Source of the DNA: a virus
Reading direction: 5' to 3' (one strand)
Virus record (IMG/VR): IMGVR_UViG_3300022743_000002
Coordinates: 23,751 to 87,750 of that record
Length of the DNA: 64,000 bases
Shown: piece after piece, positions 4,823 through 45,070 of the stretch
Numbering within the stretch: position 1 is the stretch's first letter
Layout: every line of letters begins with the position of its first letter
Translations under genes and position numbers: made by a program
Notes under the pieces: model-generated
Databases searched by the model: none
Seen by the model: only the letters and a program-made list of their open reading frames with translations
Told to the model about the DNA's origin: nothing

Positions 4823-7153
4823 TCAGCGCGGCGCCAGGAATACTACAGGCATAGACTTTGTAATGTCTGGATTAGAGCCATCGAACTCGCCATTGTTGCC
4901 GATAGCCGATTTGATCTGCGTCGGATCAAAAACGACGTACTCAGCGGGGTAGTCACCGTTCTGGATGTGCCCGTAGCTCAAAATTACACCGTCGTGGCCC
5001 TTGGCGGCCAGTTCCTGCGTCCACTTCGCGGCAGCTTCATTGTCACCGCGGCGCTCGGCGAGCATCAGCCGCTGCTTGTCTTCCAGTGTGGCCTGATACG
5101 GGTTCTTTAGGCTCAGGTAGACAGGCATCACGTTGGGTGACGCGCCAGCCTTGAGGTTGGTGTAGCTGTTGGAGATTTCGGTGTCGTTGGTGAAGTAGAA
5201 GCCCTGACCGAGCCAGCCGTTGTCTTTTTTGTTGGCGTGGCCGTGCTTGAACTCAGCGAAGTCATCAGCGGTTCCGTGATAAACGATCAACGGCTTACCA
5301 TTCCCGTCAACCACTTTACTGCCTCGAAACCAGGTCTTGAACTTCGCGGTTTCGGTTGGATGCTGGAGCGCGGCCGGCTTCGGGGCCAGTCCAGCAGCCA
5401 CAGCCTGCAACGCCTTCCTGGGGTCTACAAACTCCAATTTGGTGCCCATGTCGGTGTGACCGACGCGGATCAGGCTCTTGATGTGCGGGCGCACGGCGTG
5501 TGACGTGATGCCGAACACCTCGGCGGCCGCTGGAATGAACCACTTGAGCCCAGATGAGCCAGCTTTCAGGCCTAGCCGATTTAGGTCCATATCCGTGACT
5601 TCGCCGCCGGCCATCAACCGATCGCGCATGGCGGCCAGCGCGGTGGCGCGATCGGCCTTGTTTTTGGCGGAACTCTCGCGGTTCGATAGCCACTGCTTGC
5701 CCTGCGCCGCAGCATCCTCCGGCTTCGCGTGGTACGCGCTCAAAATATCTTTGCCCGGGAGCTCGACCGCGTAGTGGCCAGCGATTAGCCCTTTGCCGCG
5801 CGACCAGGTTGTGCCCTCGGGGAAATCGGACAGCAGGTGGTCGTGCTCGTGCTCGCCCGCGGGCTCGGTGTGCTGGAGCTCGTCGGCGAACATATCTGGC
5901 GTGTGAGTTACCGCGTCCTTGCCGTTCAGCGGGCTCGGCCCCATCGGTTTGCCGCTCATGGGGCCGCCAAATAGGCTCATTTGCCCGGGCGTAGCATGCG
6001 GGCGCGCAGATCGACCCTGATACCCAGCGACGTTCACCAGACGACCGCCACGCAGGTACGGGCCAACATGGGATTTGAAGAACAAGACCATGCTCTTGGC
6101 GATGGTGGCGCCGCCGGCCGTACCTCGGCTTTCCACGCCGTTGTCGTCGTTGAACTTCTTGGCGACCTTGATCAACTCCATCGCCGGCATGCCGATCTTG
6201 ATGATGGGTAGCTGCTTGCCTTCGAGCGCAGCGACGGCCCAGCGGTGGTGACCGTCGAGCACGCGATTGTCGGACGACACCAGAATGCGGGTTTTGGCGT
6301 CGTACCGGCCCGCCCGCGTCTCGTCCGTCAGGTAGTCCATATTGGCGGCGTTGTAGGTGCCCTGGGTCGGCTTCAGTTCGGACGGGTTCACCGTGGCCTC
6401 GGTCACGGAAACACCTGACTCACGCAGCCCGTTCAAGAACTTTTCTTTCACGCCGCTCGGAACCTGGGGCATGTCATCCCGGCGGATGCCAAGCGACGGC
6501 TTGAACATTTCCGCGTACTGCTGGTGCCGCTGGCGCTTGTCTTCGTGGGCCTGCACCACAGTTCCATCGGAGCGGGTGTAGGTATCGACGTGGGCCTTCA
6601 GCAGCAGCGCCTTGATCATGGCAGGCTTGTCGATCGTGGCGCGCACCTTGGAAACGAACTCGGCCACCGGCATGGCGGTGATGGGGCCCAGGAAACGCGG
6701 GTCGGTGTAGTTGGCCAGAAATGCCTGCTTGGCGTCTTCCTCGCTATCGAACCCGGCCATGGCCTTGTCTTCATCGTAGCGGGTCCAGTCGCCATAGGTG
6801 TTCTGGTGCACCACGTAGACCATGGGCGCGTCCGGGTTCGGGCCCATGTAGATATCGACCGGGTCACCATCCACGCCCATGGATCCGACCACCTCGCCGT
6901 AGTCGTAGGACATGCGGATTTCCCAGGCCTCGCCGGACCGGTTCACGCCGCGGCGCACGGATCCCGCCGGATTCTCAATTGCCAGCGTCAGTCCCTGCCA
7001 TTCGATGCGTGGCTTCTTGTAGGCGCCCTCGCCGGCCTGGGCGGCACTGGGCTCGCCGGGGTTTCGGCGAACTTCGCCTTCCCCCAGGTCGGCAGGCTTG
7101 GCGGCGCCGCTCATTGCCTGTGTGACGGGGTGGGATTTGAGGAAAACGATCAC
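4823..7153 (-). CDS. Polyvalent protein: inorganic-pyrophosphatase-like + ParB-like + ADP-ribosyltransferase (ART-PolyVal-like) domains
   Basis: YG...GVDGDPVDIY...YDEDKAMAGFDS (PPase-like); LKPTQ...ILVSSDNRVLDGHHRW (ParB/Srx); WFRGSKVVDGNGKPLIVYHGT...GFYFT...VYLSLKNP...GHDGV...EYVVFDPTQIKS (ART). Confidence 0.82.
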   Translation of the reverse strand: MIVFLKSHPVTQAMSGAAKPADLGEGEVRRNPGEPSAAQAGEGAYKKPRIEWQGLTLAIENPAGSVRRGVNRSGEAWEIRMSYDYGEVVGSMGVDGDPVDIYMGPNPDAPMVYVVHQNTYGDWTRYDEDKAMAGFDSEEDAKQAFLANYTDPRFLGPITAMPVAEFVSKVRATIDKPAMIKALLLKAHVDTYTRSDGTVVQAHEDKRQRHQQYAEMFKPSLGIRRDDMPQVPSGVKEKFLNGLRESGVSVTEATVNPSELKPTQGTYNAANMDYLTDETRAGRYDAKTRILVSSDNRVLDGHHRWAVAALEGKQLPIIKIGMPAMELIKVAKKFNDDNGVESRGTAGGATIAKSMVLFFKSHVGPYLRGGRLVNVAGYQGRSARPHATPGQMSLFGGPMSGKPMGPSPLNGKDAVTHTPDMFADELQHTEPAGEHEHDHLLSDFPEGTTWSRGKGLIAGHYAVELPGKDILSAYHAKPEDAAAQGKQWLSNRESSAKNKADRATALAAMRDRLMAGGEVTDMDLNRLGLKAGSSGLKWFIPAAAEVFGITSHAVRPHIKSLIRVGHTDMGTKLEFVDPRKALQAVAAGLAPKPAALQHPTETAKFKTWFRGSKVVDGNGKPLIVYHGTADDFAEFKHGHANKKDNGWLGQGFYFTNDTEISNSYTNLKAGASPNVMPVYLSLKNPYQATLEDKQRLMLAERRGDNEAAAKWTQELAAKGHDGVILSYGHIQNGDYPAEYVVFDPTQIKSAIGNNGEFDGSNPDITKSMPVVFLAPR

Positions 7154-8310
7154 TTTGGTTCCTTGCGCGGCATGGCCGCCAGCTTGTCACGCATCCATTG
7201 CCCGAACTCCACATCGTCACCTGGCCGGTCCTGAATCGTCGGAACCCAGCGCCCACGGCAATGCGGGTGCACCAGGCCGACTGGCACCTGCCACATCTCC
7301 TCGGGCTCGCGCTCCTTGAACACGGACCCCACGCGCTTGCGTGGGCTGGCGCTTCGCCCAACGTTGGTTTTGCCCGGCCAAATCATGGTCTCCGGGTCCT
7401 TGTCCTCGCGGGCGGCGTCCACGACTTCCATGACGCGGCCGTCGATTTTGCGACAGAACGCACAGGCGTTTTTGTACTGCTCGACACGCTTGACCTTGGT
7501 GCCCATGGGTAGAGACGACACGTAGCCGGCGGTCTGTGCTTCGCCGGCCTCGGTCACGGCGATCCGCCGCCAGTCGCGGTTCAGCGTGCCGAACTGGTCG
7601 AGGAGCTTGGTCTCCAGACTCGACGACGGTGCCGGCAGTCCGAGCTCGCGCTCCGTGACGTGCTCGGCAATGACGCCACGCATGCGGTGCCGGACGTCAT
7701 TGGCGATGTTGCGGACATTCTCGGCACAGCGGGTTTCAGCGTGAGCCATGGTAGCGCGCTGTGCGACGGTGCCGCCAAACGCCGCAATGGCCTCAGCGGC
7801 CGTGCTCGGCATGGCCGCCAGCAGCACGTCGGCCTGCTTGGCGTCGGCGGCCTCCATGTTGGCCTGCACGCGCCCCATGAGGCTGGCACGTGTCGACAAC
7901 CAGTCGGCCTCGGTGCGCATGTCGTCTGCAGGCAGGTAGCGCTGCACCGTCGCGTCGACGGCAAGCATGTGGTCTTCCAGCGTCCAATCGGACGGCGGGA
8001 GGTGTTCGAGGTAGATATGGACCAGAGAGAGCTCGCTTTGCGTCCATCGCTCCATCATGCCGCCAGGGCGAATGATGCGCTCGCCGGGCTTGTGTCGGAC
8101 GCCGGCGGTCCAGGCCTGAATCTCGGTGCGCACGGCGTCAAGGCGATCGAGACCGCGCTGCGTGAAAAGCTCGACCAGGCGACGCAGCAACGGGCTATCC
8201 ATTGGCGCCCAGATGCCGTCGTCGTGGTCATGCGTGGACTTGCACAGGAACTCCAGAGCGTCGTTTGTGACGCGCTCACCAAGTTCAATTAAATCGACGA
8301 ACAAAGACAT
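7150..8310 (-). CDS. MuF/SPP1 gp7-like head morphogenesis protein
   Basis: RDWRRIAVTE, CAFC and HPHCRG motifs; lies downstream of the portal. Confidence 0.75.
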   Translation of the reverse strand: MSLFVDLIELGERVTNDALEFLCKSTHDHDDGIWAPMDSPLLRRLVELFTQRGLDRLDAVRTEIQAWTAGVRHKPGERIIRPGGMMERWTQSELSLVHIYLEHLPPSDWTLEDHMLAVDATVQRYLPADDMRTEADWLSTRASLMGRVQANMEAADAKQADVLLAAMPSTAAEAIAAFGGTVAQRATMAHAETRCAENVRNIANDVRHRMRGVIAEHVTERELGLPAPSSSLETKLLDQFGTLNRDWRRIAVTEAGEAQTAGYVSSLPMGTKVKRVEQYKNACAFCRKIDGRVMEVVDAAREDKDPETMIWPGKTNVGRSASPRKRVGSVFKEREPEEMWQVPVGLVHPHCRGRWVPTIQDRPGDDVEFGQWMRDKLAAMPRKEPK

Positions 8311-8316
8311 GCTGGC

Positions 8317-8332
8317 AGTATGCGATCACGAC
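8317..8332 (-). promoter_or_regulatory. Putative late promoter GTCGTGA-TCG-CATACT
   Basis: Motif copy; ATG at 8310 follows after 6 nt. Confidence 0.75.
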
Positions 8333-8333
8333 G

Positions 8334-8502
8334 AAAAGCCGGAGCGGTTTCCAGCCCCGGCGATCCGGCGCGACCCTGGCACGGCGCGTAAACGCCGGAA
8401 AGGAACCGACCTCCAACCCTCAATGGACGTCGGCGCCATGTCGCGCTGCGGCCTTTATATCCCGAATGAACCGCAAACGGTCACGCTCAAGCCAACACTA
8501 AC
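8334..8502 (-). ncRNA. Candidate late non-coding RNA (about 170 nt)
   Basis: Own motif promoter at 8509-8524, no credible ORF, ends in a GC hairpin followed by TTTT. Confidence 0.45.
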
Positions 8503-8508
8503 AATGGC

Positions 8509-8524
8509 AGTGTGCAGTCACGAC
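8509..8524 (-). promoter_or_regulatory. Putative late promoter GTCGTGA-CTG-CACACT
   Basis: Motif copy directly after a terminator; no start codon at +1. Confidence 0.7.
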
Positions 8525-8550
8525 AAAAAAACCCGGCACAAGGCCGGGTT
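8525..8550 (-). terminator. Intrinsic terminator of the portal-SAS-SAH operon
   Basis: AACCCGGC-cttgt-GCCGGGTT-TTTTT on the minus strand. Confidence 0.85.
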
Positions 8551-8842
8551 AAAAGCTCCGACCCAGGGAGGAAAGGCCGGCCACTTGCGTGGGGGTTGAT
8601 GGCGGCCGAAGGTGATCACCCTGCTATCGACCGGGAACCCCCAGCCGTTCGGCATCTTCGCCATCAAGAATGAGACCTTACCACTGGCTGCATCCGCGTT
8701 TAAGTAGATACACCATAATCTCATACTTGATGACCCTGCAAGCAGGCATCAAGGGCACCTAACGGGTACCAGTCGACGTGATTAAGTGCCGTCGCACGGA
8801 GTTGTCTACTCAGGTCCGAAAACTAATTCTAATCACAAATAA
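8551..8842 (-). ncRNA. Structured long 3' UTR or candidate ncRNA
   Basis: Consecutive stems: TTGATGGCG/CGCCATCAA, ATGAGA/TCTCAT, CTTGATG/CATCAAG. Confidence 0.4.
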
Positions 8843-9439
8843 CTATATTTGTGCAATGCCGCGCAAATATATTTCATCAAAAATAGCATCGAGTACGGGG
8901 TGACGCTGGCTCATGGCCGTTACCACCTGGCGCGCATCGCTGTAATACTTGCGCTTTCTGTCTGCGCCCCAAGCCGGTGGCATAACCAGCAGGTCCCGCA
9001 AGTTAGCAGTCTTGTCTGCCACCTTCACGGCGGCCGCCCTGGGGCTCATGGTTTGCGCGTGGGCTACCTGCATCGCCAGCTTGTCTTCGGGCTTCACGTC
9101 TTCGTTCGTGAGCTCCGCCACGGCGTCGGCAACGTCATGACCAAATTCAGCCACCAGGTTTTCGTGGCTGACGCCGCAGTCCTCAATGGTGTCGTGCAGC
9201 AGAGCCGTGATCAGCGTGGCGTCATCGGTGACGCCAGCCTCATCGTGCAGGATTCGGGCGACTGCGCGCGGGTGTTCGATGTAGGGAACCTTGGGCGCGC
9301 CAGGCTGGCCCTTGCGGTACTGGCCGGTGTGGGCCCGCTCCGCGAACTTGTCGGCGCGCCTGACGTGAGGGGAAACGTAAACGCCATTGCGGCGGGTATG
9401 GCCCGCCACATGAACCGTTGATTTGAACAAGAGGATCAC
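8843..9439 (-). CDS. HD-domain small alarmone hydrolase (Mesh1/SpoT-HD family) with an N-terminal KS tag
   Basis: AHTGQYRK...PYIEHP...ALLHDTIED...FG..VA..V.ELT...VKVADKTANLRD. Confidence 0.88.
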   Translation of the reverse strand: MILLFKSTVHVAGHTRRNGVYVSPHVRRADKFAERAHTGQYRKGQPGAPKVPYIEHPRAVARILHDEAGVTDDATLITALLHDTIEDCGVSHENLVAEFGHDVADAVAELTNEDVKPEDKLAMQVAHAQTMSPRAAAVKVADKTANLRDLLVMPPAWGADRKRKYYSDARQVVTAMSQRHPVLDAIFDEIYLRGIAQI

Positions 9440-9648
9440 GCCTGATCCCTGGTCTCGGCCTTTTGTTCACCCATGTAGGGCTTCACTTCGTCGAGGGTCA
9501 TGGGGTTGCTCAGCCTACGTACCCTGTCGACGTCGCCTTCGTAGGGCTTCCATTGGCCGGTCCGCTCTAGGTAGACCTCCATCTTGCCGCCGGCATCCCG
9601 GAAAACAGCCCCCTCGACCTCAAAATACTGCTCAGTTCCCATTTTCAC
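9436..9648 (-). CDS. 70-aa hypothetical protein, candidate antitoxin or regulator of the synthetase
   Basis: Overlaps both neighbouring genes; the function is inferred from position only. Confidence 0.7.
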   Translation of the reverse strand: MKMGTEQYFEVEGAVFRDAGGKMEVYLERTGQWKPYEGDVDRVRRLSNPMTLDEVKPYMGEQKAETRDQA

Positions 9649-11230
9649 GCCCCTTCAAATTCCACAAGATCATTCTAGGCGTTGGCATAGATTTAGTCAA
9701 ATTTGATGATTCATTCTGTTGTTGTTTCTCACCAGCCTTAGCTTTCTCCCAGGCATCACCGTAGAGAGACTCCTGCTCTTTCATGGCGGCGGCGTGCGTC
9801 TCACGGTCCTTGGCGTCCCATTTGCTTGTATCTGAGCCAACGCCATTCTCGCGATATTTACCTTCTATTGATCGCGTTGTCTCGTATGGCTTGTGGCCTT
9901 TTTCCTTGGCCAGCGTCATTGGCTTCACGTGCACCTGCATCTCGGCGAGCATGCCGTTGGGTAGCCGCATGATCATGTTGATATCGCGGTAGCCGCCCGG
10001 CAATGGCTTGACCAGGTTGTTCTTGGGCTTCTGCGCCAGCTCGATGCCGGCCGCCTTGAGCTCGGCGAGCACCTTCGGGATTTGGGTGACGCCAGGCACT
10101 GCGATTGTGGCGCGCACCATGTCGCGCAGCTGCGACCAGTCGCCGTCGTAGTCCTGGGCGACCTTCTCCTTGGCGCGCTTCTCGCCCTTGAGCGGGCCCA
10201 TGAACAGGTAGCCGCGATCGTCGTCCCAGTGCTCGGGCAGCATGTAGTCGGTGTCGGACAGGTCGGCCGGATTGCGGCCTTCCTTCTCGGCGTTGATCTT
10301 CTCCTCGTGCTGGGCGTGGTCCAGCGACTGCGGGCGCTTGCCGGTCACCAGACCAAGATTCTGCGCGACCTTGCTGAGCATATCGCTGTACTGCTTCAGG
10401 CCTTCCTCGCCCTTGGACTTCAGTTCATCCCATGACTGGACAGGCTGATTGACCTTGGTCGGCAGCTTATCGAGCTCTGAGGTATCGAATAGCGCGCGAG
10501 CGATCCCCTCGGCGCCGTCGGGGGCCGGCTTTGGCGTTCCCGGCGCGTCTACCTGGTTGGGTTGCGTCTCCTGGTGCGGACTCGCGTCCGGCTTACCTTC
10601 GCCGCCCCAGTGGTGGGTAATTTTGTCATGCGTTACAAGGTGTTGGCCACCGGCGCTGTCCCGGACACGCACGCCGTCCTTGCCGGATGCCGTTACCTCG
10701 CCGTGCCCCTTGTGCTCGCCATTGGCAAAGCCGACGTGCTGGCCGCGCTGGGCCGGCGGGCTACCCTGGTCAGTGCTGACCCACTTGGTAGTTTGAACGC
10801 CATTCTTATCAGTGATTACCTTCTTTTGCAGACCGGGTGCACCAGCGTAGGTTCCCGGCGCTGACGCCTTCATAAATAGCATGACGGGCCGCGTGTGCCC
10901 CATTGATTTAGCGACCATTGGGTCTTCCTTGGATTCGTTTGGTATTGCCACAAATCGACGCCGGCCGGACTTGTCCTCGACCAGCATGCCATCCTCTCCT
11001 TGATCGACGACGGCGTATTTTTGCAGGGCCCGGGTCTTGTGACCAAGGACCTTGTCCCATCGGACCGGGTGATGGCCGCCGTCAATCTCGACGGTTACGC
11101 CGTGCTTTCCGTGCGCCTTGACCAAGCCGGTGCGCGGTTGTCCGCGGTGGTGCACATACAGATGGTCGCCCACCTCGACGTCGTGGCGCGGCTCCGGCTC
11201 CGGGCGCGGCTTAGGCTTCTGGTAGGTCAT
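9632..11230 (-). CDS. Multidomain protein with a C-terminal RelA/SpoT-type small alarmone synthetase (nucleotidyltransferase) domain
   Basis: GPLKGEKRAKEK, QLRDMVRATI, GGYRDIN and AEMQVH match the four RSH synthetase motifs; ATGA-coupled to the portal stop. Confidence 0.82.
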   Translation of the reverse strand: MTYQKPKPRPEPEPRHDVEVGDHLYVHHRGQPRTGLVKAHGKHGVTVEIDGGHHPVRWDKVLGHKTRALQKYAVVDQGEDGMLVEDKSGRRRFVAIPNESKEDPMVAKSMGHTRPVMLFMKASAPGTYAGAPGLQKKVITDKNGVQTTKWVSTDQGSPPAQRGQHVGFANGEHKGHGEVTASGKDGVRVRDSAGGQHLVTHDKITHHWGGEGKPDASPHQETQPNQVDAPGTPKPAPDGAEGIARALFDTSELDKLPTKVNQPVQSWDELKSKGEEGLKQYSDMLSKVAQNLGLVTGKRPQSLDHAQHEEKINAEKEGRNPADLSDTDYMLPEHWDDDRGYLFMGPLKGEKRAKEKVAQDYDGDWSQLRDMVRATIAVPGVTQIPKVLAELKAAGIELAQKPKNNLVKPLPGGYRDINMIMRLPNGMLAEMQVHVKPMTLAKEKGHKPYETTRSIEGKYRENGVGSDTSKWDAKDRETHAAAMKEQESLYGDAWEKAKAGEKQQQNESSNLTKSMPTPRMILWNLKGRENGN

Positions 11231-12972
11231 GATTGAATTCTGAACACCGGCAGGCCAAACGACTTGGCTATGTCCTGCTGATCATCTCCGGGCCTCTCCG
11301 TAGCCCCAGCATCATCGGGCGCCCCGAAGTCTTGCCCGCCCTGATCGTCACCAAAATCCTGATCGCCGCCGCCGTCATCGCCGTCATCGGTCGACTGCCC
11401 AGGCTCAGCGCCAGGCTGGCCGTAGTCCTCTTGCTGCGGCATTGCCTCTTGTTGCCAGGCGCCAACCAGCGAGGGATTCAATGGAGCGTCACCCCACTTA
11501 CCGTCGGCCTTGTCGACGCCGTCCTCGGCTCGGATCTCGTTGACGGTGCGCGTCATTTTTTTGCGCTCCCAGATCGTCTTTTCGTCTTCCTCGTCCAGGC
11601 CGGTGAACTGGAATTCGTACTTGTCACTGAACTCGCCAATGACGTACTCGCTCAGCGTGGACTCGAAATAGCTCAGCAGGGGGCGCAGGCCCTTGTCTTT
11701 GCTGTTGACGATCTTCTCCTCGGTGTCGTCTCCGCTCAGCGATGACGTTCCGGACGTGAAGCTCTCAAAATTGATTTCCTCGGGCGCAATGCCGTAGATC
11801 GCGCAGATGATGGATGACAAGAACGTCATCCACTTGGCGAACATGATTTCGTTGGCGGCGTTACCGAATTCCGTGAAGTCGGCTTTCGACTCCTGATCCT
11901 TGGACACCATGACGGGCAGCGTCCAGGCGTTATTGACGCCCTTGACCATGCCGTTCCAGTAGCGCTTAAAGGCGGCAACATCCTCGTCGCTGTAGTTTCC
12001 GTACAGGTTCAGCATGCCCTTGGGTATGGCGTTGCTGTCGAAAAATTTGGTGTTGTAGGTGAAGGCGTTCAGAAAGCCCGTCACCACGCGGATAAGCAGT
12101 TCCGTCTCGGACAGTCCGTAGCCGCCAGCAAGCACGTCGGTGCGTGGGTTGCGCGGCACATACACCAGGTCGTCATAGGTGTAGGCGCTGCGGATCTGGC
12201 CTTGCACGACCTGGAGGGCGAAAATCTCGTCTTCGCCTTGGTAGCCGTCTTCGCTGCACAACCGAATGGTGGCTCCGTCGACGGCGTACATGCCGTCCAG
12301 GCCGAGCGACTTGTCGCGCTTCCACTCGGTCTCAATCGGTGCGCTGTCCATGGTGAGGCTGTCGCGCACCAGCTTCATCATGAAGTTTTGGAAGTTGTCG
12401 CGCTTCAGGCGCAGGCGCTGGCGGGGCTTGGTCTCCCAGCCGCTGTTGGTCACGAATGACTCCAGCAGCTTAATGGTGGCCTTTTCGTTTTCGTCGATGT
12501 TCTCCAGCTTTTCCTTGCTGGCGATCCTGAAACCCGACCCCTTGCCACCCTTCTGCGGCCGGCAAAACCTGGCCACCTGGCGCTGGCGCGTCATTATGAC
12601 GGCGTTCAAAATCGGCGTTTGGTCCACCATGGCGCGCATGGCATCAAACGTGAATTGGCCGGGTCGCTCGAACCAGTCGCCGTTGATGTTGATCTGCAGG
12701 TCGTCCAGCCAGACCGACTGCATGCCGGGCTTCTTGTCTTTGATGGCATTCGACGGGAACGGGATGACGTTCTGCTTTTGCAGCGACTTCGCCATGGCCT
12801 GATCGTCCAGGTCACGGTTGATGTAGTCAATGATGGGCTGAATGTTCGCCGCCGGTATCAGGTCCGACAACGCCTTGGGCATGCTGGATTTTTGAAGCTC
12901 CGCCATGGCTTCAGTCCGCTCGTCGGCGGGCGCACGTGGATCAGCGAGTATGGCGCGGGCAGCATCAGTCAT
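11227..12972 (-). CDS. Portal protein
   Basis: 581 aa; AVDGATIR, RNPRTD...YGLS..E, FFDSNAIPKGML, ICAIYGIAPEEI, GLRPLL, TVNEIR; acidic C-terminal tail. Confidence 0.9.
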   Translation of the reverse strand: MTDAARAILADPRAPADERTEAMAELQKSSMPKALSDLIPAANIQPIIDYINRDLDDQAMAKSLQKQNVIPFPSNAIKDKKPGMQSVWLDDLQININGDWFERPGQFTFDAMRAMVDQTPILNAVIMTRQRQVARFCRPQKGGKGSGFRIASKEKLENIDENEKATIKLLESFVTNSGWETKPRQRLRLKRDNFQNFMMKLVRDSLTMDSAPIETEWKRDKSLGLDGMYAVDGATIRLCSEDGYQGEDEIFALQVVQGQIRSAYTYDDLVYVPRNPRTDVLAGGYGLSETELLIRVVTGFLNAFTYNTKFFDSNAIPKGMLNLYGNYSDEDVAAFKRYWNGMVKGVNNAWTLPVMVSKDQESKADFTEFGNAANEIMFAKWMTFLSSIICAIYGIAPEEINFESFTSGTSSLSGDDTEEKIVNSKDKGLRPLLSYFESTLSEYVIGEFSDKYEFQFTGLDEEDEKTIWERKKMTRTVNEIRAEDGVDKADGKWGDAPLNPSLVGAWQQEAMPQQEDYGQPGAEPGQSTDDGDDGGGDQDFGDDQGGQDFGAPDDAGATERPGDDQQDIAKSFGLPVFRIQS

Positions 12973-12978
12973 GCCTGA

Positions 12979-12994
12979 AGGGTAACGTCACGAC
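12979..12994 (-). promoter_or_regulatory. Putative late promoter GTCGTGA-CGT-TACCCT
   Basis: Motif copy; portal ATG follows after 6 nt. Confidence 0.75.
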
Positions 12995-16670: not shown

Positions 16671-17039
16671 TTATCGGGCGCCAGTTACGCGCTTTTCACC
16701 GTCGTATTTTGCCTTTGCGTCCTTCAGCGGCTGCTGGCGCTTCTTTAGCTCCATGTGCGCATAGTGCACCTCGTCGATGTACTGTCCGCCCTTTTTGTCG
16801 TTGCCCATTGCGTAGGCGTGCTTGGCCGCCTCTTTGGCATCCTTGATCACGTAATGGAGCTGGTCTTCGCTGTAGGTCGCAAATTTGCCCTGGGTCCGGC
16901 TGTGCCAGTTTTCCTCGTCGCGCCAGTCTTTTTTTGGTTTGGCGGCCTGCCGCTTGTCGTCATGCGCACCCACAACGGAGCCGTCCTTGCGCGTGAACGT
17001 ATCAATGTGCGACTTGAAAAATAGGGCGAGTGCTTTCAT
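16671..17039 (-). CDS. Small KS-tagged protein, candidate internal head protein
   Basis: MKALALFFKSHIDTFTRKDGSVVGAHDDKR closely matches an internal segment of 4823..7153; has its own late promoter. Confidence 0.8.
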   Translation of the reverse strand: MKALALFFKSHIDTFTRKDGSVVGAHDDKRQAAKPKKDWRDEENWHSRTQGKFATYSEDQLHYVIKDAKEAAKHAYAMGNDKKGGQYIDEVHYAHMELKKRQQPLKDAKAKYDGEKRVTGAR

Positions 17040-17045
17040 TCCCGC

Positions 17046-17061
17046 ATTTTGCGATCACGAC
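17046..17061 (-). promoter_or_regulatory. Putative late promoter GTCGTGA-TCG-CAAAAT
   Basis: Motif copy whose TGA is the terL stop codon; ATG follows after 6 nt. Confidence 0.75.
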
Positions 17062-23493: not shown

Positions 23494-23787
23494 TCAGTTA
23501 TGCGTCGGCGCGCTTACCTGGACAGCGGTAACCCGTGCCGGGAATTCAGGCGTCGGACTGTCCTCGCGCTGGCAGCGTATGCCGGCGTCGACGCCAGTCT
23601 TGAGTTTGATGCCGCAGCAGCACACCGCGGCCTCGCTGGATCCTTGCGCCTCGGCTTCACACCCAGAGCAGCGGTACGTCCGCCGCCGATCGAAGGCCTC
23701 GTGCATCAGCACGCGCGAAAAGCACACTCTGCAAATGTGGTCAGTGATGACCCAGCCCTGCACCGGCTCGCGCATTGACTTCACCAC
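23494..23787 (-). CDS. Cys-rich hypothetical protein
   Basis: CRVC, CSGC, CCCG. Confidence 0.65.
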   Translation of the reverse strand: MVKSMREPVQGWVITDHICRVCFSRVLMHEAFDRRRTYRCSGCEAEAQGSSEAAVCCCGIKLKTGVDAGIRCQREDSPTPEFPARVTAVQVSAPTHN

Positions 23788-43466: not shown

Positions 43467-43763
43467 TTGCGCCCGACCTGCGCCCGGGCTAAAAATCCCG
43501 GGCGCGGCGTTCGGGCTTGACCCTCCCGAGCGATCTATGTAAGCCTCTGAGTTGCAAGTGAAATTCAGGAGTTTGGTTCAAAGCGCGCGGGCGTAGTTCA
43601 GTGGTAGAACGACAGCTTCCCAAGCTGGTCAGTCAGTATTCACTGGACTTCACACATGATCATTTTTGATCATATAATCAGTGTGTTAGCTGCCTAAACT
43701 GTTTTGAACACAACACTTAATTTCACTGCCCGTCACGATACGTTGCGCCCTAAATGCGCCCGG
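43467..43763 (+). other. attP region: tRNA-homologous core flanked by paired TGCGCCC arm-type repeats
   Basis: TTGCGCCCGACCTGCGCCCGG (43467-43487), TTGCGCCCTAAATGCGCCCGG (43743-43763), IHF-like AATCAGTGTGTTA; adjacent to the integrase. Confidence 0.8.
43587..43627 (+). pseudogene. 5' fragment of tRNA-Gly(CCC) (attP core)
   Basis: GCGGGCG-TA-GTTC AGTGGTA GAAC-GA-CAGC TTCCCAA GCTG; no T-arm and no 3' acceptor strand. Confidence 0.85.
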
Positions 43764-43801
43764 ATTGTTGGCGGTCACCAGTGCCATATTGCGAGACCAC
43801 C

Positions 43802-45070
43802 ATGCCAAAACTGACCAAGACAATCATTGACAACGCGCCAACCCCGGTCAGCGGTGATGCCTGGATCTGGGATGCCGATTTGGAGGGTTTTGGCATCCGA
43901 ATACAGGCCAGCGGACGCAAGACCTACGTGGTGCGCTACAGGACCAAAGACGCATCAAGGACGCAGCGCAAACTGACGCTCTGCCGGTGCGGCGACGCGC
44001 CGCCAGACAAGGCTCGCCAGATGGCGCGTGACGTTTTCATGCAGGTCGCCACGGGCACCGACGTCGTCGCCGAGCGCAAGCCCAACCGAGACAGCGCCAT
44101 TACTGTCCAGGCCATGTTCGAGGCCCGCATCGCCGCCATGCGGACCCGAGAACGTGCCAACGCCGACGAGGTCGAGCGCGTGCTGCTCAAGGCCAAGAAC
44201 AACGCCGCCGACTCGCTGGGGCGCGCCACGCCACCCGGACAAGTCACACCAGCCGACGTCGTCAAGTTTGTGTCTACGTTCTACGCCAAGGGTCACCGTG
44301 GCGCCGCAGACAAGGCAAGGGGTTACCTGGCGGCCGCCTTCGCCTGGGCTATCACATCGGCCAACGATTACACCGTGCAGGGTCGCCAGGACTGGGGCGT
44401 CACAATCAACCCAGCCGCCGCAGTAGCGAAGGACCAGGGCGCCATCAAGGTGCGCGACCGTAACCTGGATGGCGCCGAGCTGCGCGTCGTCTGGGAGGCA
44501 TGCAGCGATGGAAACGCTGGATTCACGGAGGGCGTCGAAGCCTGCCTAAAGGTCATGATTGCCTGTGGCCAGCGCGTGCAAGAGACGCTGCGCATGGACG
44601 GCAACGAGGTGGACCTGGACGCGATGGTTTGGCGCATGCCAGCCCACAAGACCAAAGGACGCAAGCGCCCCCACACTATCCCCCTGCCTCGCATCATCTT
44701 GCCGACGCTGATCGCCCTCAAAGACCAGTACGGCGACGGGCCCCTGTTCCCGGCTCGCAGCGGAACCAATGAACGACTTGGGATACTGAGCATCAGTCAG
44801 GCGGTGCGCCGGTGGCTGGATACCGATGGCAACACCATGGAGGCATTCCAGCCGCGTGACCTGCGCAGGACGTGGAAGTCGCGGACGCATGATGCCGGCG
44901 TTGACCGGTTCACGCGGGACCTGATCCAGCAACACGCCAAGTCCGACACCGGATCAAAAAACTACGACCGCGCAGACTATTTTGCGCAGATGCGCGACGC
45001 CATGGACAATTGGAACACGTGGCTCAACAGCGCGCTGTTTGATCGGCCCGAGCTGGTGCTGGTGGCGTAG
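43802..45070 (+). CDS. int: Tyrosine integrase with an arm-binding domain
   Basis: WDADLEGFGIRI..SGRKTY; GQRVQE, KTK, RDLRRT, QQH, NYDR. Confidence 0.92.
   Translation: MPKLTKTIIDNAPTPVSGDAWIWDADLEGFGIRIQASGRKTYVVRYRTKDASRTQRKLTLCRCGDAPPDKARQMARDVFMQVATGTDVVAERKPNRDSAITVQAMFEARIAAMRTRERANADEVERVLLKAKNNAADSLGRATPPGQVTPADVVKFVSTFYAKGHRGAADKARGYLAAAFAWAITSANDYTVQGRQDWGVTINPAAAVAKDQGAIKVRDRNLDGAELRVVWEACSDGNAGFTEGVEACLKVMIACGQRVQETLRMDGNEVDLDAMVWRMPAHKTKGRKRPHTIPLPRIILPTLIALKDQYGDGPLFPARSGTNERLGILSISQAVRRWLDTDGNTMEAFQPRDLRRTWKSRTHDAGVDRFTRDLIQQHAKSDTGSKNYDRADYFAQMRDAMDNWNTWLNSALFDRPELVLVA

Follow-up and report, generated by a model that had tools for sequence, protein, structure and literature searches.

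A candidate Tas1-like alarmone toxin-immunity module in the head gene block of a probably temperate PHB04-like myophage

The window analyzed here is a stretch of 64,000 nucleotides (positions 23,751 to 87,750) of the IMG/VR virus record IMGVR_UViG_3300022743_000002, which is 87,750 bp long and has an estimated completeness of 95%. On its minus strand, directly behind the portal gene, three genes follow one another: a gene for a 532-aa polyprotein with a RelA/SpoT-type synthetase domain (9632..11230), a small open reading frame (ORF) of 70 or 68 aa (9436..9648) and a gene for a 198-aa Mesh1-like small alarmone hydrolase of the HD type (8843..9439). The best explanation of the whole, which we consider probable though far from secure, is that the three genes form a Tas1-like toxin-immunity module that travels as head cargo of a temperate phage and whose antidotes are served by a promoter of their own. 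Statements about function rest throughout on homology, structural models and comparative genomics. An earlier interpretation made from the letters alone (the sequence-only reading) had recognized a RelA/SpoT synthetase by its motifs, a small neutralizer and a Mesh1-like hydrolase that overlap one another and the portal stop. Coordinates, motifs and matches to Tas1 and Mesh1 bear this out, and the three identities have support from sequence and fold, from synteny and co-variation and from a complex prediction with controls. All four ORFs, the portal gene included, lie on the minus strand where they had first been placed, and neighboring ORFs overlap by between 4 and 17 nt: ATGA (11227-11230) is common to the portal stop and the start of the 532-aa ORF, the 532-aa stop (9632) overlaps the start of the small ORF by 17 nt (from GTG 9648) or 11 nt (from ATG 9642), and the stop of the small ORF shares GTGA (9436-9439) with the hydrolase start.

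The 532-aa protein ends in a RelA/SpoT-fold pyrophosphokinase domain (toxSYNTH; residues 245-500, 9731..10498) to which the (p)ppApp toxin Tas1 is the nearest solved relative in both sequence and fold. The AlphaFold2 (AF2) model of this domain has a predicted local distance difference test (pLDDT) score of about 90, and all five syn motifs are present: PLKGEKRAKEK (346-356), RDMVR (369-373), GYRD (413-416) and EMQVH (430-434), all noticed earlier, and additionally HKPYE (446-450). Within these motifs K348/K356, D370/R373, G413-Y-R-D416, E430/Q432 and H446/Y449 are invariant among 17 sequences. By phmmer, residues 318-444 match Tas1 (6OX6) at E=1e-7; a profile of the 17-sequence family reaches Tas1 at E=2e-10, with RelQ/YwaC and Rel enzymes next. 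Foldseek of the catalytic-domain model also puts Tas1 at the top (E=5e-8, 25% identity); RelP, RelQ and Rel come next with a probability of 1.00. Over these comparisons Tas1 is the leading match and the sole strong one. Sequence matches to the protein or its profile comprised Tas1 and nucleotide-making small alarmone synthetases (SAS) and Rel enzymes only, with no CapRel or FaRel2 entry. Classification by hidden Markov model, proposed as a check by the sequence-only reading, gives matches for most of the family and none for the window's own protein: PF04607 is matched by 15 of 17 synthetase relatives (47-77% identity; best E=1.4e-8), and most longer relatives score 17-26 bits, under the 27-bit cut-off. 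Pfam and PHROGs returned no family for the 532-aa or the 70-aa protein themselves, nor any MuF similarity in the 532-aa protein, whose architecture is thus not the MuF fusion of the published toxin Apk2. Among isolated phages, tblastn found the synthetase in PHB04 alone, and plasmids gave partial, distant matches only.

The synthetase most likely makes (p)ppApp from ATP. Its syn2, syn3 and syn4 residues read VRAT, GYRDIN and QVH. According to Paulet et al. (PMC12226406), the adenosine-type signatures of Apk enzymes are RYT, GxN and YH, and those of RelA/SpoT homologues (RSH) are AVR, SxH and IR; the R-x-T of syn2, the final N of syn3 and the final H of syn4 agree with the former and not with the latter.

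The small ORF is predicted to encode a cognate, Tis1-like inhibitor (immunity protein) of the synthetase. It can be read from GTG 9648 as 70 aa or from ATG 9642 as 68 aa (P0121), the latter start being preceded by an AAGGGG Shine-Dalgarno sequence. As the suggested comparison with related phages confirmed, an ORF of 66-86 aa belonging to one family, which divides into two sequence classes, follows the synthetase gene of Bordetella phage PHB04 and each of those in about 20 related loci from IMG/VR. The pair of toxin and small ORF is retained even in the three loci that lack the hydrolase (L020, L026 and L027). A profile of the small protein matches 246 cluster representatives. One of the matching proteins, P0145 (1353 aa), contains eight matches and is a tandem array of the small-protein domain. 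A frameshift fusion of synthetase and small ORF was considered and dropped, since relatives have ordinary coupling overlaps of 1-4 nt.

The small protein varies together with the catalytic domain and not with its other neighbors. Over 13 loci, its pairwise identity correlates with that of the catalytic domain (Spearman rho 0.55), whereas the values against the N-terminal part of the synthetase, the hydrolase, MuF and the portal protein range from -0.08 to -0.19; the identity of the catalytic domain itself has a correlation of about 0 with these four. The loci L019 (6001-7521) and L025 (1601-3334) join an N-terminal carrier of the window's type (68-75% identity) to a much more divergent catalytic domain (40%) and a matching divergent small ORF. 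For L019, backbone proteins are 75-85% identical to those of the window, compared with 40% for the catalytic domain and 28% for the small protein. This pattern, read from sequence comparison, indicates replacement of a toxin-immunity cassette, and the catalytic domain and the small protein appear to behave as a polymorphic toxin domain with its cognate immunity protein.

Structural modeling points in the same direction. The AlphaFold model of the small protein (pLDDT 81) has four strands and two helices. Foldseek ranks Tis1 (6ox6_B) first, weakly (E 0.64, probability 0.82, template-modeling score 0.5), and VIA-align gives Tis1 a Z of 4.4, with a root-mean-square deviation of 4.5 over 62 residues, the next match having a Z of 3.3. 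The predicted complex of catalytic domain and small protein, another check named by the sequence-only reading, has an interaction prediction score from aligned errors (ipSAE) of 0.85 against 0.01 for the best control; the score was computed from alignments made in this analysis, and the ipSAE mark is attained by 58 of 80 solved complexes and by 2 of 110 mismatched pairs. Runs had at least 82% of contacts in common, with a partner pLDDT of at least 79. The predicted interface consists of synthetase residues 359-370, 408-412 and 449-463, around D370, the GYRD loop and H446/Y449, and the model supports binding of the small protein over the acceptor side of the active site. Toxic small alarmone synthetases (toxSAS) that make (pp)pApp are blocked by Tis1-like domains at the acceptor site, and those that modify tRNA have zinc-finger-like (pZFD) antitoxins at the donor site (PMC11782079); acceptor-side docking of a Tis1-like partner would fit this rule.

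The third gene encodes a SpoT/Mesh1-type small alarmone hydrolase (SAH). The protein scores 49.8 bits against PF13328 (HD_4; cut-off 27.2) and matches human and fly Mesh1 at E=1e-26 to 1e-24 (3nr1 at 1e-26), with the catalytic H, HD, ED and D residues aligned and intact (HP..., LLHDT.ED, ADK..NLRD). An identity of the Aph1 type (short, 149 aa, (p)ppApp-specific) was considered and rejected: Aph1 (7SMG) matches only residues 26-121 at E=2.8e-6, far behind Mesh1, Rel and PaSAH-type enzymes, and the difference between 1e-26 and about 3e-6 places the hydrolase with SpoT/Mesh1. It is proposed to be a generic second antidote that destroys the product of the synthetase. Protein inhibitors of such toxins are cognate and hydrolase immunities are interchangeable (PMC12226406).

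Two kinds of promoter appear to serve the three genes. The motif RTCGTGA-N4-A-N3-T, which precedes structural genes and is present in 11 copies in the window (chance expectation 0.66), is taken as the late promoter. One copy (12979..12994, minus) lies 6 nt before the portal ATG and is the sole copy upstream of the triad, none being found between 12979 and 8524. An intrinsic-terminator-like hairpin followed by T7 (8530..8550, minus) is, judging by its sequence, the likely 3' end of the portal-to-hydrolase transcript. Within the last codons of the synthetase gene, a sigma-70-type promoter (TTGACT, 17 nt, TAGAAT; 9672..9700, minus) matches the consensus at 10 of 12 positions. It is the best such match in the region, lies about 25-30 nt ahead of the small ORF start and its AAGGGG ribosome-binding site, and reads into the small ORF and the hydrolase gene. 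The sequence-only reading had described one late operon; the late promoter before the portal gene agrees with that description, and the embedded promoter ahead of the small ORF amends it.

The embedded promoter is conserved beyond what its coding role would account for. The spacer is exactly 17 nt in all 19 family genes. At a fixed offset the -35 box reads TTGACY, TTGATC or TTGCAR in 17 of 19 (ATGCAG and CTGAAA in the remaining two), and the -10 box conforms to xAxxxT in 19/19 and to TAxxxT in 16/19, despite widely varying encoded amino acids. Of 18 genes, 17 use TTG as the leucine codon within the -35 box, whereas TTG accounts for 14% of all leucine codons in synthetase-family genes; over 20 conserved leucine columns the next highest use of TTG is 5/16 and the median is 6%. 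This bias, together with hexamers that stay fixed while the residues vary, points to selection at the DNA level. Thus, on sequence grounds, the small ORF and the hydrolase gene are probably expressed in two ways, through translational coupling to the late transcript and from their own host-type promoter, and with such a promoter the antidotes could be made in lysogens and immediately after DNA entry.

Both enzymes carry a short tag that is absent from the small protein. The tag consists of a start codon, four to five hydrophobic residues and K-[S/A], usually followed by a basic hairpin (V.GY.R.DG..V..H.R). Starts of the form M-hhhh-K-[S/A] head 5 genuine ORFs out of 469 in the genome and 0 of 395 in the reversed genome; the tag-headed proteins are the hydrolase, a 776-aa polyprotein, a 2202-aa protein, a 1518-aa protein and a 122-aa ORF (16671-17039). 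In the hydrolase, residues 1-27 (9359-9439) form an extension with the tag MILLFKS and the hairpin TVHVAGHTRRNGVYVSPHVR, and the Mesh1 alignment begins at residue 28. In the synthetase, the tag VAKSMGHTRPVMLFMKA (residues 106-122, 10865..10915, minus) separates a first small beta-barrel, a KOW/SH3-like carrier domain (residues 18-100, 10931..11179; AF2 strands and Spt5 KOW matches), from a second (residues 133-210, 10601..10834; conservation and AF2 model). The stretch is disordered in the AF2 model except for a short strand, and its K108, R114 and K121 are (nearly) invariant. At the domain junctions of polyproteins the tag takes a doubled form (AKSM...VLFFKS), and the 776-aa protein has tags at its N-terminal end, at two internal junctions and at its C-terminal end. 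PHB04 and more than 20 metagenomic relatives keep the tags, substitutions in them being conservative, and the tag is never present in the small-ORF family. The "KS tag" that the sequence-only reading had seen on both enzymes, and not on the 70-aa protein, is therefore real, conserved and more widespread than it had stated, with the correction that in the synthetase it is internal and not N-terminal.

Relatives show that the tagged junctions are true module boundaries. In L018, an ORF (875-2386) joins the first barrel through a LAKA-APLLIDIG junction to the N-terminus of MuF, and the remainder of the synthetase is a separate gene with the tag at its N-terminus; in P0059, an ART-PolyVal module is inserted ahead of the synthetase tag in the same polyprotein. 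The scaffold-like protein, too, is rich in AK[S/A] motifs, which the capsid protein has at its N-terminus. By analogy, the tags may act as loading and/or protease-processing signals, and delivery of the module in the virion is plausible. The head-cargo reading is consistent with the position of the module between the portal gene and the genes for MuF, polyvalent proteins and prohead protease, with the conservation of tags on the two enzymes and their absence from the small protein, and with the fusion of the first domain to MuF (L018) or the presence of an ART module in the same polyprotein (P0059). That RelA/SpoT domains in MuF fusions or polyvalent proteins are injected has been hypothesized before (Iyer et al., PMC5512222; PMC10083569). 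The tag as an RNA-level feature of leaderless late mRNAs was considered and rejected: the hydrolase tag is internal to the operon, neither portal nor MuF, both from leaderless genes, has a tag, and variation among the residues is conservative.

Some further observations concern the tag and the head proteins. A 45-aa tag region searched against phages by tblastn found PHB04 only, so the tag is documented for the PHB04-like family. PHB04 encodes the InPase module separately, in a gene whose end retains a remnant of the following tag. The 122-aa tagged ORF (16671-17039, minus), with the tag and hairpin MKALALFFKSHIDTFTRKDGSVVGAHDDKR, lies outside the head block and is preceded by a late-promoter copy (17046-17061); L019 encodes a 134-aa relative in its hydrolase-MuF gap, on the opposite strand (9082-9486, minus). 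Tagged proteins thus occur in more than a single operon. In its C-terminal part, the head protease (L002:15546-16457) repeats an N-terminal segment of the capsid protein (L002:13448-14899) near-verbatim (KALEAGYGTDSAALAGGSAMRVQSLD and KALTAGYGTDVSGFAGGSALRIQSLD, respectively). This shared segment follows a K|A site in both proteins, and the scaffold-like protein encoded between them has three MAK[S/A] sites.

These lines of evidence suggest how the module may operate. Late in infection, the synthetase polyprotein would be made from the portal promoter along with inhibitor and hydrolase, which would stop it from draining ATP during DNA packaging. The tagged synthetase and hydrolase would be loaded into proheads with the neighboring polyvalent enzymes, trimmed by the head protease and injected, and the untagged inhibitor would be left outside or stripped at ejection. 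If the inhibitor is not loaded, the toxin would act briefly in the newly infected cell. There the synthetase would act at once, most likely making (p)ppApp, depleting ATP and blocking purine synthesis, as (p)ppApp synthesis by Tas1 does (PMC11782079). Host RNA polymerase would then transcribe the inhibitor and hydrolase genes from the embedded promoter and so end the pulse, and lysogens making the antidotes would be immune to sibling virions. The sequence-only reading had let the co-packaged hydrolase time the pulse and the inhibitor stay behind in the producing cell; this needs revision, because the antidotes have a conserved host-type promoter of their own and would not only be left behind or co-packaged. 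In its most specific form, the proposal is that a trans-acting tag replaces the MuF fusion and loads synthetase and hydrolase, and that the excluded inhibitor is re-expressed from the embedded promoter, giving a self-limited, genetically timed (p)ppApp pulse to which lysogens are immune. We put this form forward tentatively. What the analysis demonstrates is which components are present, their synteny, the tags, the conservation of the promoter and the co-variation; the product, the inhibition, the packaging, the cleavage, the injection and any benefit for the phage are inferred from these.

Several points weigh against the head-cargo toxin module or parts of it. The window's own 532-aa protein has no PF04607 match at E<=1, and syn motifs alone do not fix nucleotide specificity (Paulet et al., PMC12226406). 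The tag of the synthetase is internal and its own N-terminus is untagged; its C-terminal LTKS...MILW tag is encoded by the same bases as the embedded promoter, so that part of the tag conservation is DNA-level. Packaging, cleavage at K|S/A and injection are argued by analogy with the T4 capsid-targeting sequence (CTS; PMC3012670). As for the inhibitor, profiles of 23 or 68 sequences show no likeness to Tis1 (against the PDB they gave EF-hand-like noise only, E>0.01), the fold match is weak in absolute terms, and the model's memory of 6OX6 could partly explain the complex score. The identity correlations come from 13 related loci and carry no P-value.

Different roles for the three proteins also have to be considered. 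The tagged hydrolase may mainly be an independent injected counter-defense enzyme that removes host (p)ppGpp/(p)ppApp or reverses host toxSAS, and not primarily an antidote to its own synthetase. Its cargo tag would suit this role, it goes with the phage backbone rather than with the synthetase cassette, 155 phage records contain Mesh1-like hydrolases, in most cases with no synthetase, and SAH enzymes promiscuously neutralize toxSAS products (PMC11782079). We hold this to be a doubtful but real possibility, given that the gene directly follows the toxin-inhibitor pair, is translationally coupled to it and stands under the same embedded promoter, that such hydrolases provide a second immunity in the Apk2 and FaRel systems described in the literature, and that antidote and counter-defense roles are not mutually exclusive. 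For the synthetase, pyrophosphorylation of tRNA CCA ends or production of (p)ppGpp, instead of (p)ppApp, seems unlikely. It is true that Tas1, FaRel2 and CapRel have toxSYNTH folds that superimpose closely (PMC11782079), that motif swaps leave specificity unswitched (PMC12226406) and that exported synthetases include makers of (p)ppGpp and of both products (PMC12691689); nevertheless, the sequence matches are to Tas1 and nucleotide-making enzymes and not to CapRel or FaRel2, the syn2, syn3 and syn4 residues are adenosine-type, and the Tis1-like partner is predicted to dock on the acceptor side, whereas tRNA-type enzymes use donor-site pZFD antitoxins.

The module might instead work inside the lysogen as a prophage toxin-antitoxin or superinfection-exclusion system, like Phrann gp29/gp30 or CapRel-type toxSAS, unpackaged and with its tags used otherwise. 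No separate promoter serves the toxin, whose translation is coupled to that of the portal gene downstream of a late promoter, and a toxin produced late only is unable to protect a lysogen; the phage's toxin also has the carrier domains and junction tags common to polyvalent head cargo, and its domains are fused to MuF or ART modules in relatives. We therefore rate this reading as quite unlikely, even though the phage has an integrase, the antidotes have their own host-type promoter and pairs of toxSAS and antitoxin are known prophage defense modules (PMC7229694). It is more improbable still that the small protein is a loading chaperone or adaptor of the synthetase and not its inhibitor: the predicted interface covers the catalytic cleft and not the carrier domain, the top structural match is the immunity protein Tis1, and the protein has no head-targeting tag. 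What speaks for a chaperone is its strict co-inheritance with the catalytic domain and a remark that type VI secretion system (T6SS) effectors of the Tas1-like class need chaperones (PMC10083569).

The design of toxin, binder and hydrolase has already been published (Apk2-IapK-Aph1; FaRel-ATfaRel-AT2faRel), and what is new here is a variant of delivery and regulation, not a new kind of system. The closest parallel in organization is the Apk2-IapK (BcTis1)-Aph1 module, in which Apk2 is a MuF polymorphic toxin of temperate phages, reported from Bacteroides caccae, S. pneumoniae, M. haemolytica and P. multocida (PMC10083569, PMC12226406). The two modules share the order toxin, inhibitor, hydrolase; in both, the inhibitor is always there and cognate, the hydrolase is variable and generic or interchangeable, and the genes lie in the head gene block of a temperate phage, injection with the DNA being suspected only. 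Unlike Apk2, the synthetase described here is free of a MuF fusion (MuF has its own gene 1.3 kb downstream) and has two KOW/SH3-like barrels, bearing a cleavage- or loading-type tag, as its carrier. The hydrolase, too, differs in being of the Mesh1/SpoT and not the Aph1 type and in itself being cargo-tagged, and the antidote promoter is embedded in the toxin coding sequence.

Other known systems resemble single parts of the module. The type VI pair Tas1 (Apk1)-Tis1 of Pseudomonas aeruginosa (6OX6) includes the nearest solved relative of the catalytic domain (25% identity), and the small partner, which ranks Tis1 first in fold (weakly), is predicted to dock on the corresponding face. The module differs from this pair in that delivery would use the phage head and not PAAR/T6SS, a hydrolase is added and the small protein has no sequence likeness to Tis1. 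The FaRel tricistron (ATfaRel SAH-FaRel-AT2faRel; PMC7229694, PMC11782079) likewise combines a (pp)pApp-type synthetase with a SpoT/Mesh1-type hydrolase and a Tis1-like binder, but it is a chromosomal toxin-antitoxin operon without a delivery context, has another gene order, and its AT2faRel has an extra pZFD domain. As in the polyvalent proteins (Iyer et al. 2017, PMC5512222), unrelated enzymes (InPase, ParB-like, ART-PolyVal, methylase/helicase and sometimes RelA/SpoT) are encoded between portal/MuF and protease; unlike there, no zincin MPTase is seen, and processing would fall to the head protease. The internal proteins and Alt of T4 (PMC3012670) also have a short N-terminal signal common to unrelated cargo, although the tag (M-hhhh-K-S/A and a basic hairpin) bears no relation to the T4 CTS and has so far been seen in the PHB04-like family only.

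Papers on Apk2 explicitly pose the question of whether phage-borne alarmone toxins ride in virions and are injected. The PHB04-like family offers a tractable case, because it has a cultured member, Bordetella phage PHB04, and because a toxin encoded as a separate tagged gene is simpler to study than one fused to an essential head protein. A tagged hydrolase and an untagged inhibitor give a clear proteomic prediction, and the embedded antidote promoter is suited to reporter testing. The swapping of catalytic domain and inhibitor as a cassette would show the dynamics of polymorphic toxins within a phage head operon.

The genes around the triad belong to a head module. The order is portal, triad, MuF, the 776-aa InPase-ParB-ART polyprotein, the 2202-aa protein, a 1518-aa helicase, head protease, scaffold and capsid, and it places the triad in the part of the head module that encodes packaged "polyvalent" effectors in other phages (PMC5512222). 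The portal protein (581 aa; 11227..12972, minus) matches PF04860 and phrog_12 and carries IAKSFGLPVFRIQS at its C-terminal end. MuF is represented by a 386-aa MuF-like minor head protein (7150..8310, minus), recognized by a weak match to phrog_115 and by conserved synteny. The 776-aa polyprotein (4823-7153, minus) contains InPase (PF18823), a ParB-like region and ART-PolyVal (PF18760), and the 2202-aa protein is a methylase-SNF2 (DarB-like) protein; for the head maturation protease, no Pfam family came up. A tyrosine integrase that carries an Arm DNA-binding domain (43754-45070, plus; PF13356, PF00589) makes it probable that the phage, a PHB04-like myophage, is temperate.

The triad had been described as wired between portal and MuF. 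It does lie between these genes, but the strong terminator-like hairpin at 8550-8530 and two late-promoter copies, one without an ORF behind it (8509-8524, minus) and one belonging to the MuF gene (8317-8332, minus), part the hydrolase gene from MuF. The gap between hydrolase and MuF (8333-8842, minus; 530 nt) contains no convincing ORF, has a second terminator at 8361-8338 and folds better than its shuffles (z=-3.15). Rfam at the gathering threshold and ARAGORN returned nothing in the window; below that threshold, 8523-8583 in the gap matches the Burkholderia anti-hemB sRNA (40.5 bits against 49.5; E=6e-8). PHB04 has a gene for a Ser/Thr phosphatase at this position. In relatives (L006, L007, L009, L013, L019, L022 and L024) the stretch between hydrolase and MuF ranges from 0.2 to 2.3 kb and holds differing accessory genes, and it behaves as a variable slot for cargo or morons.

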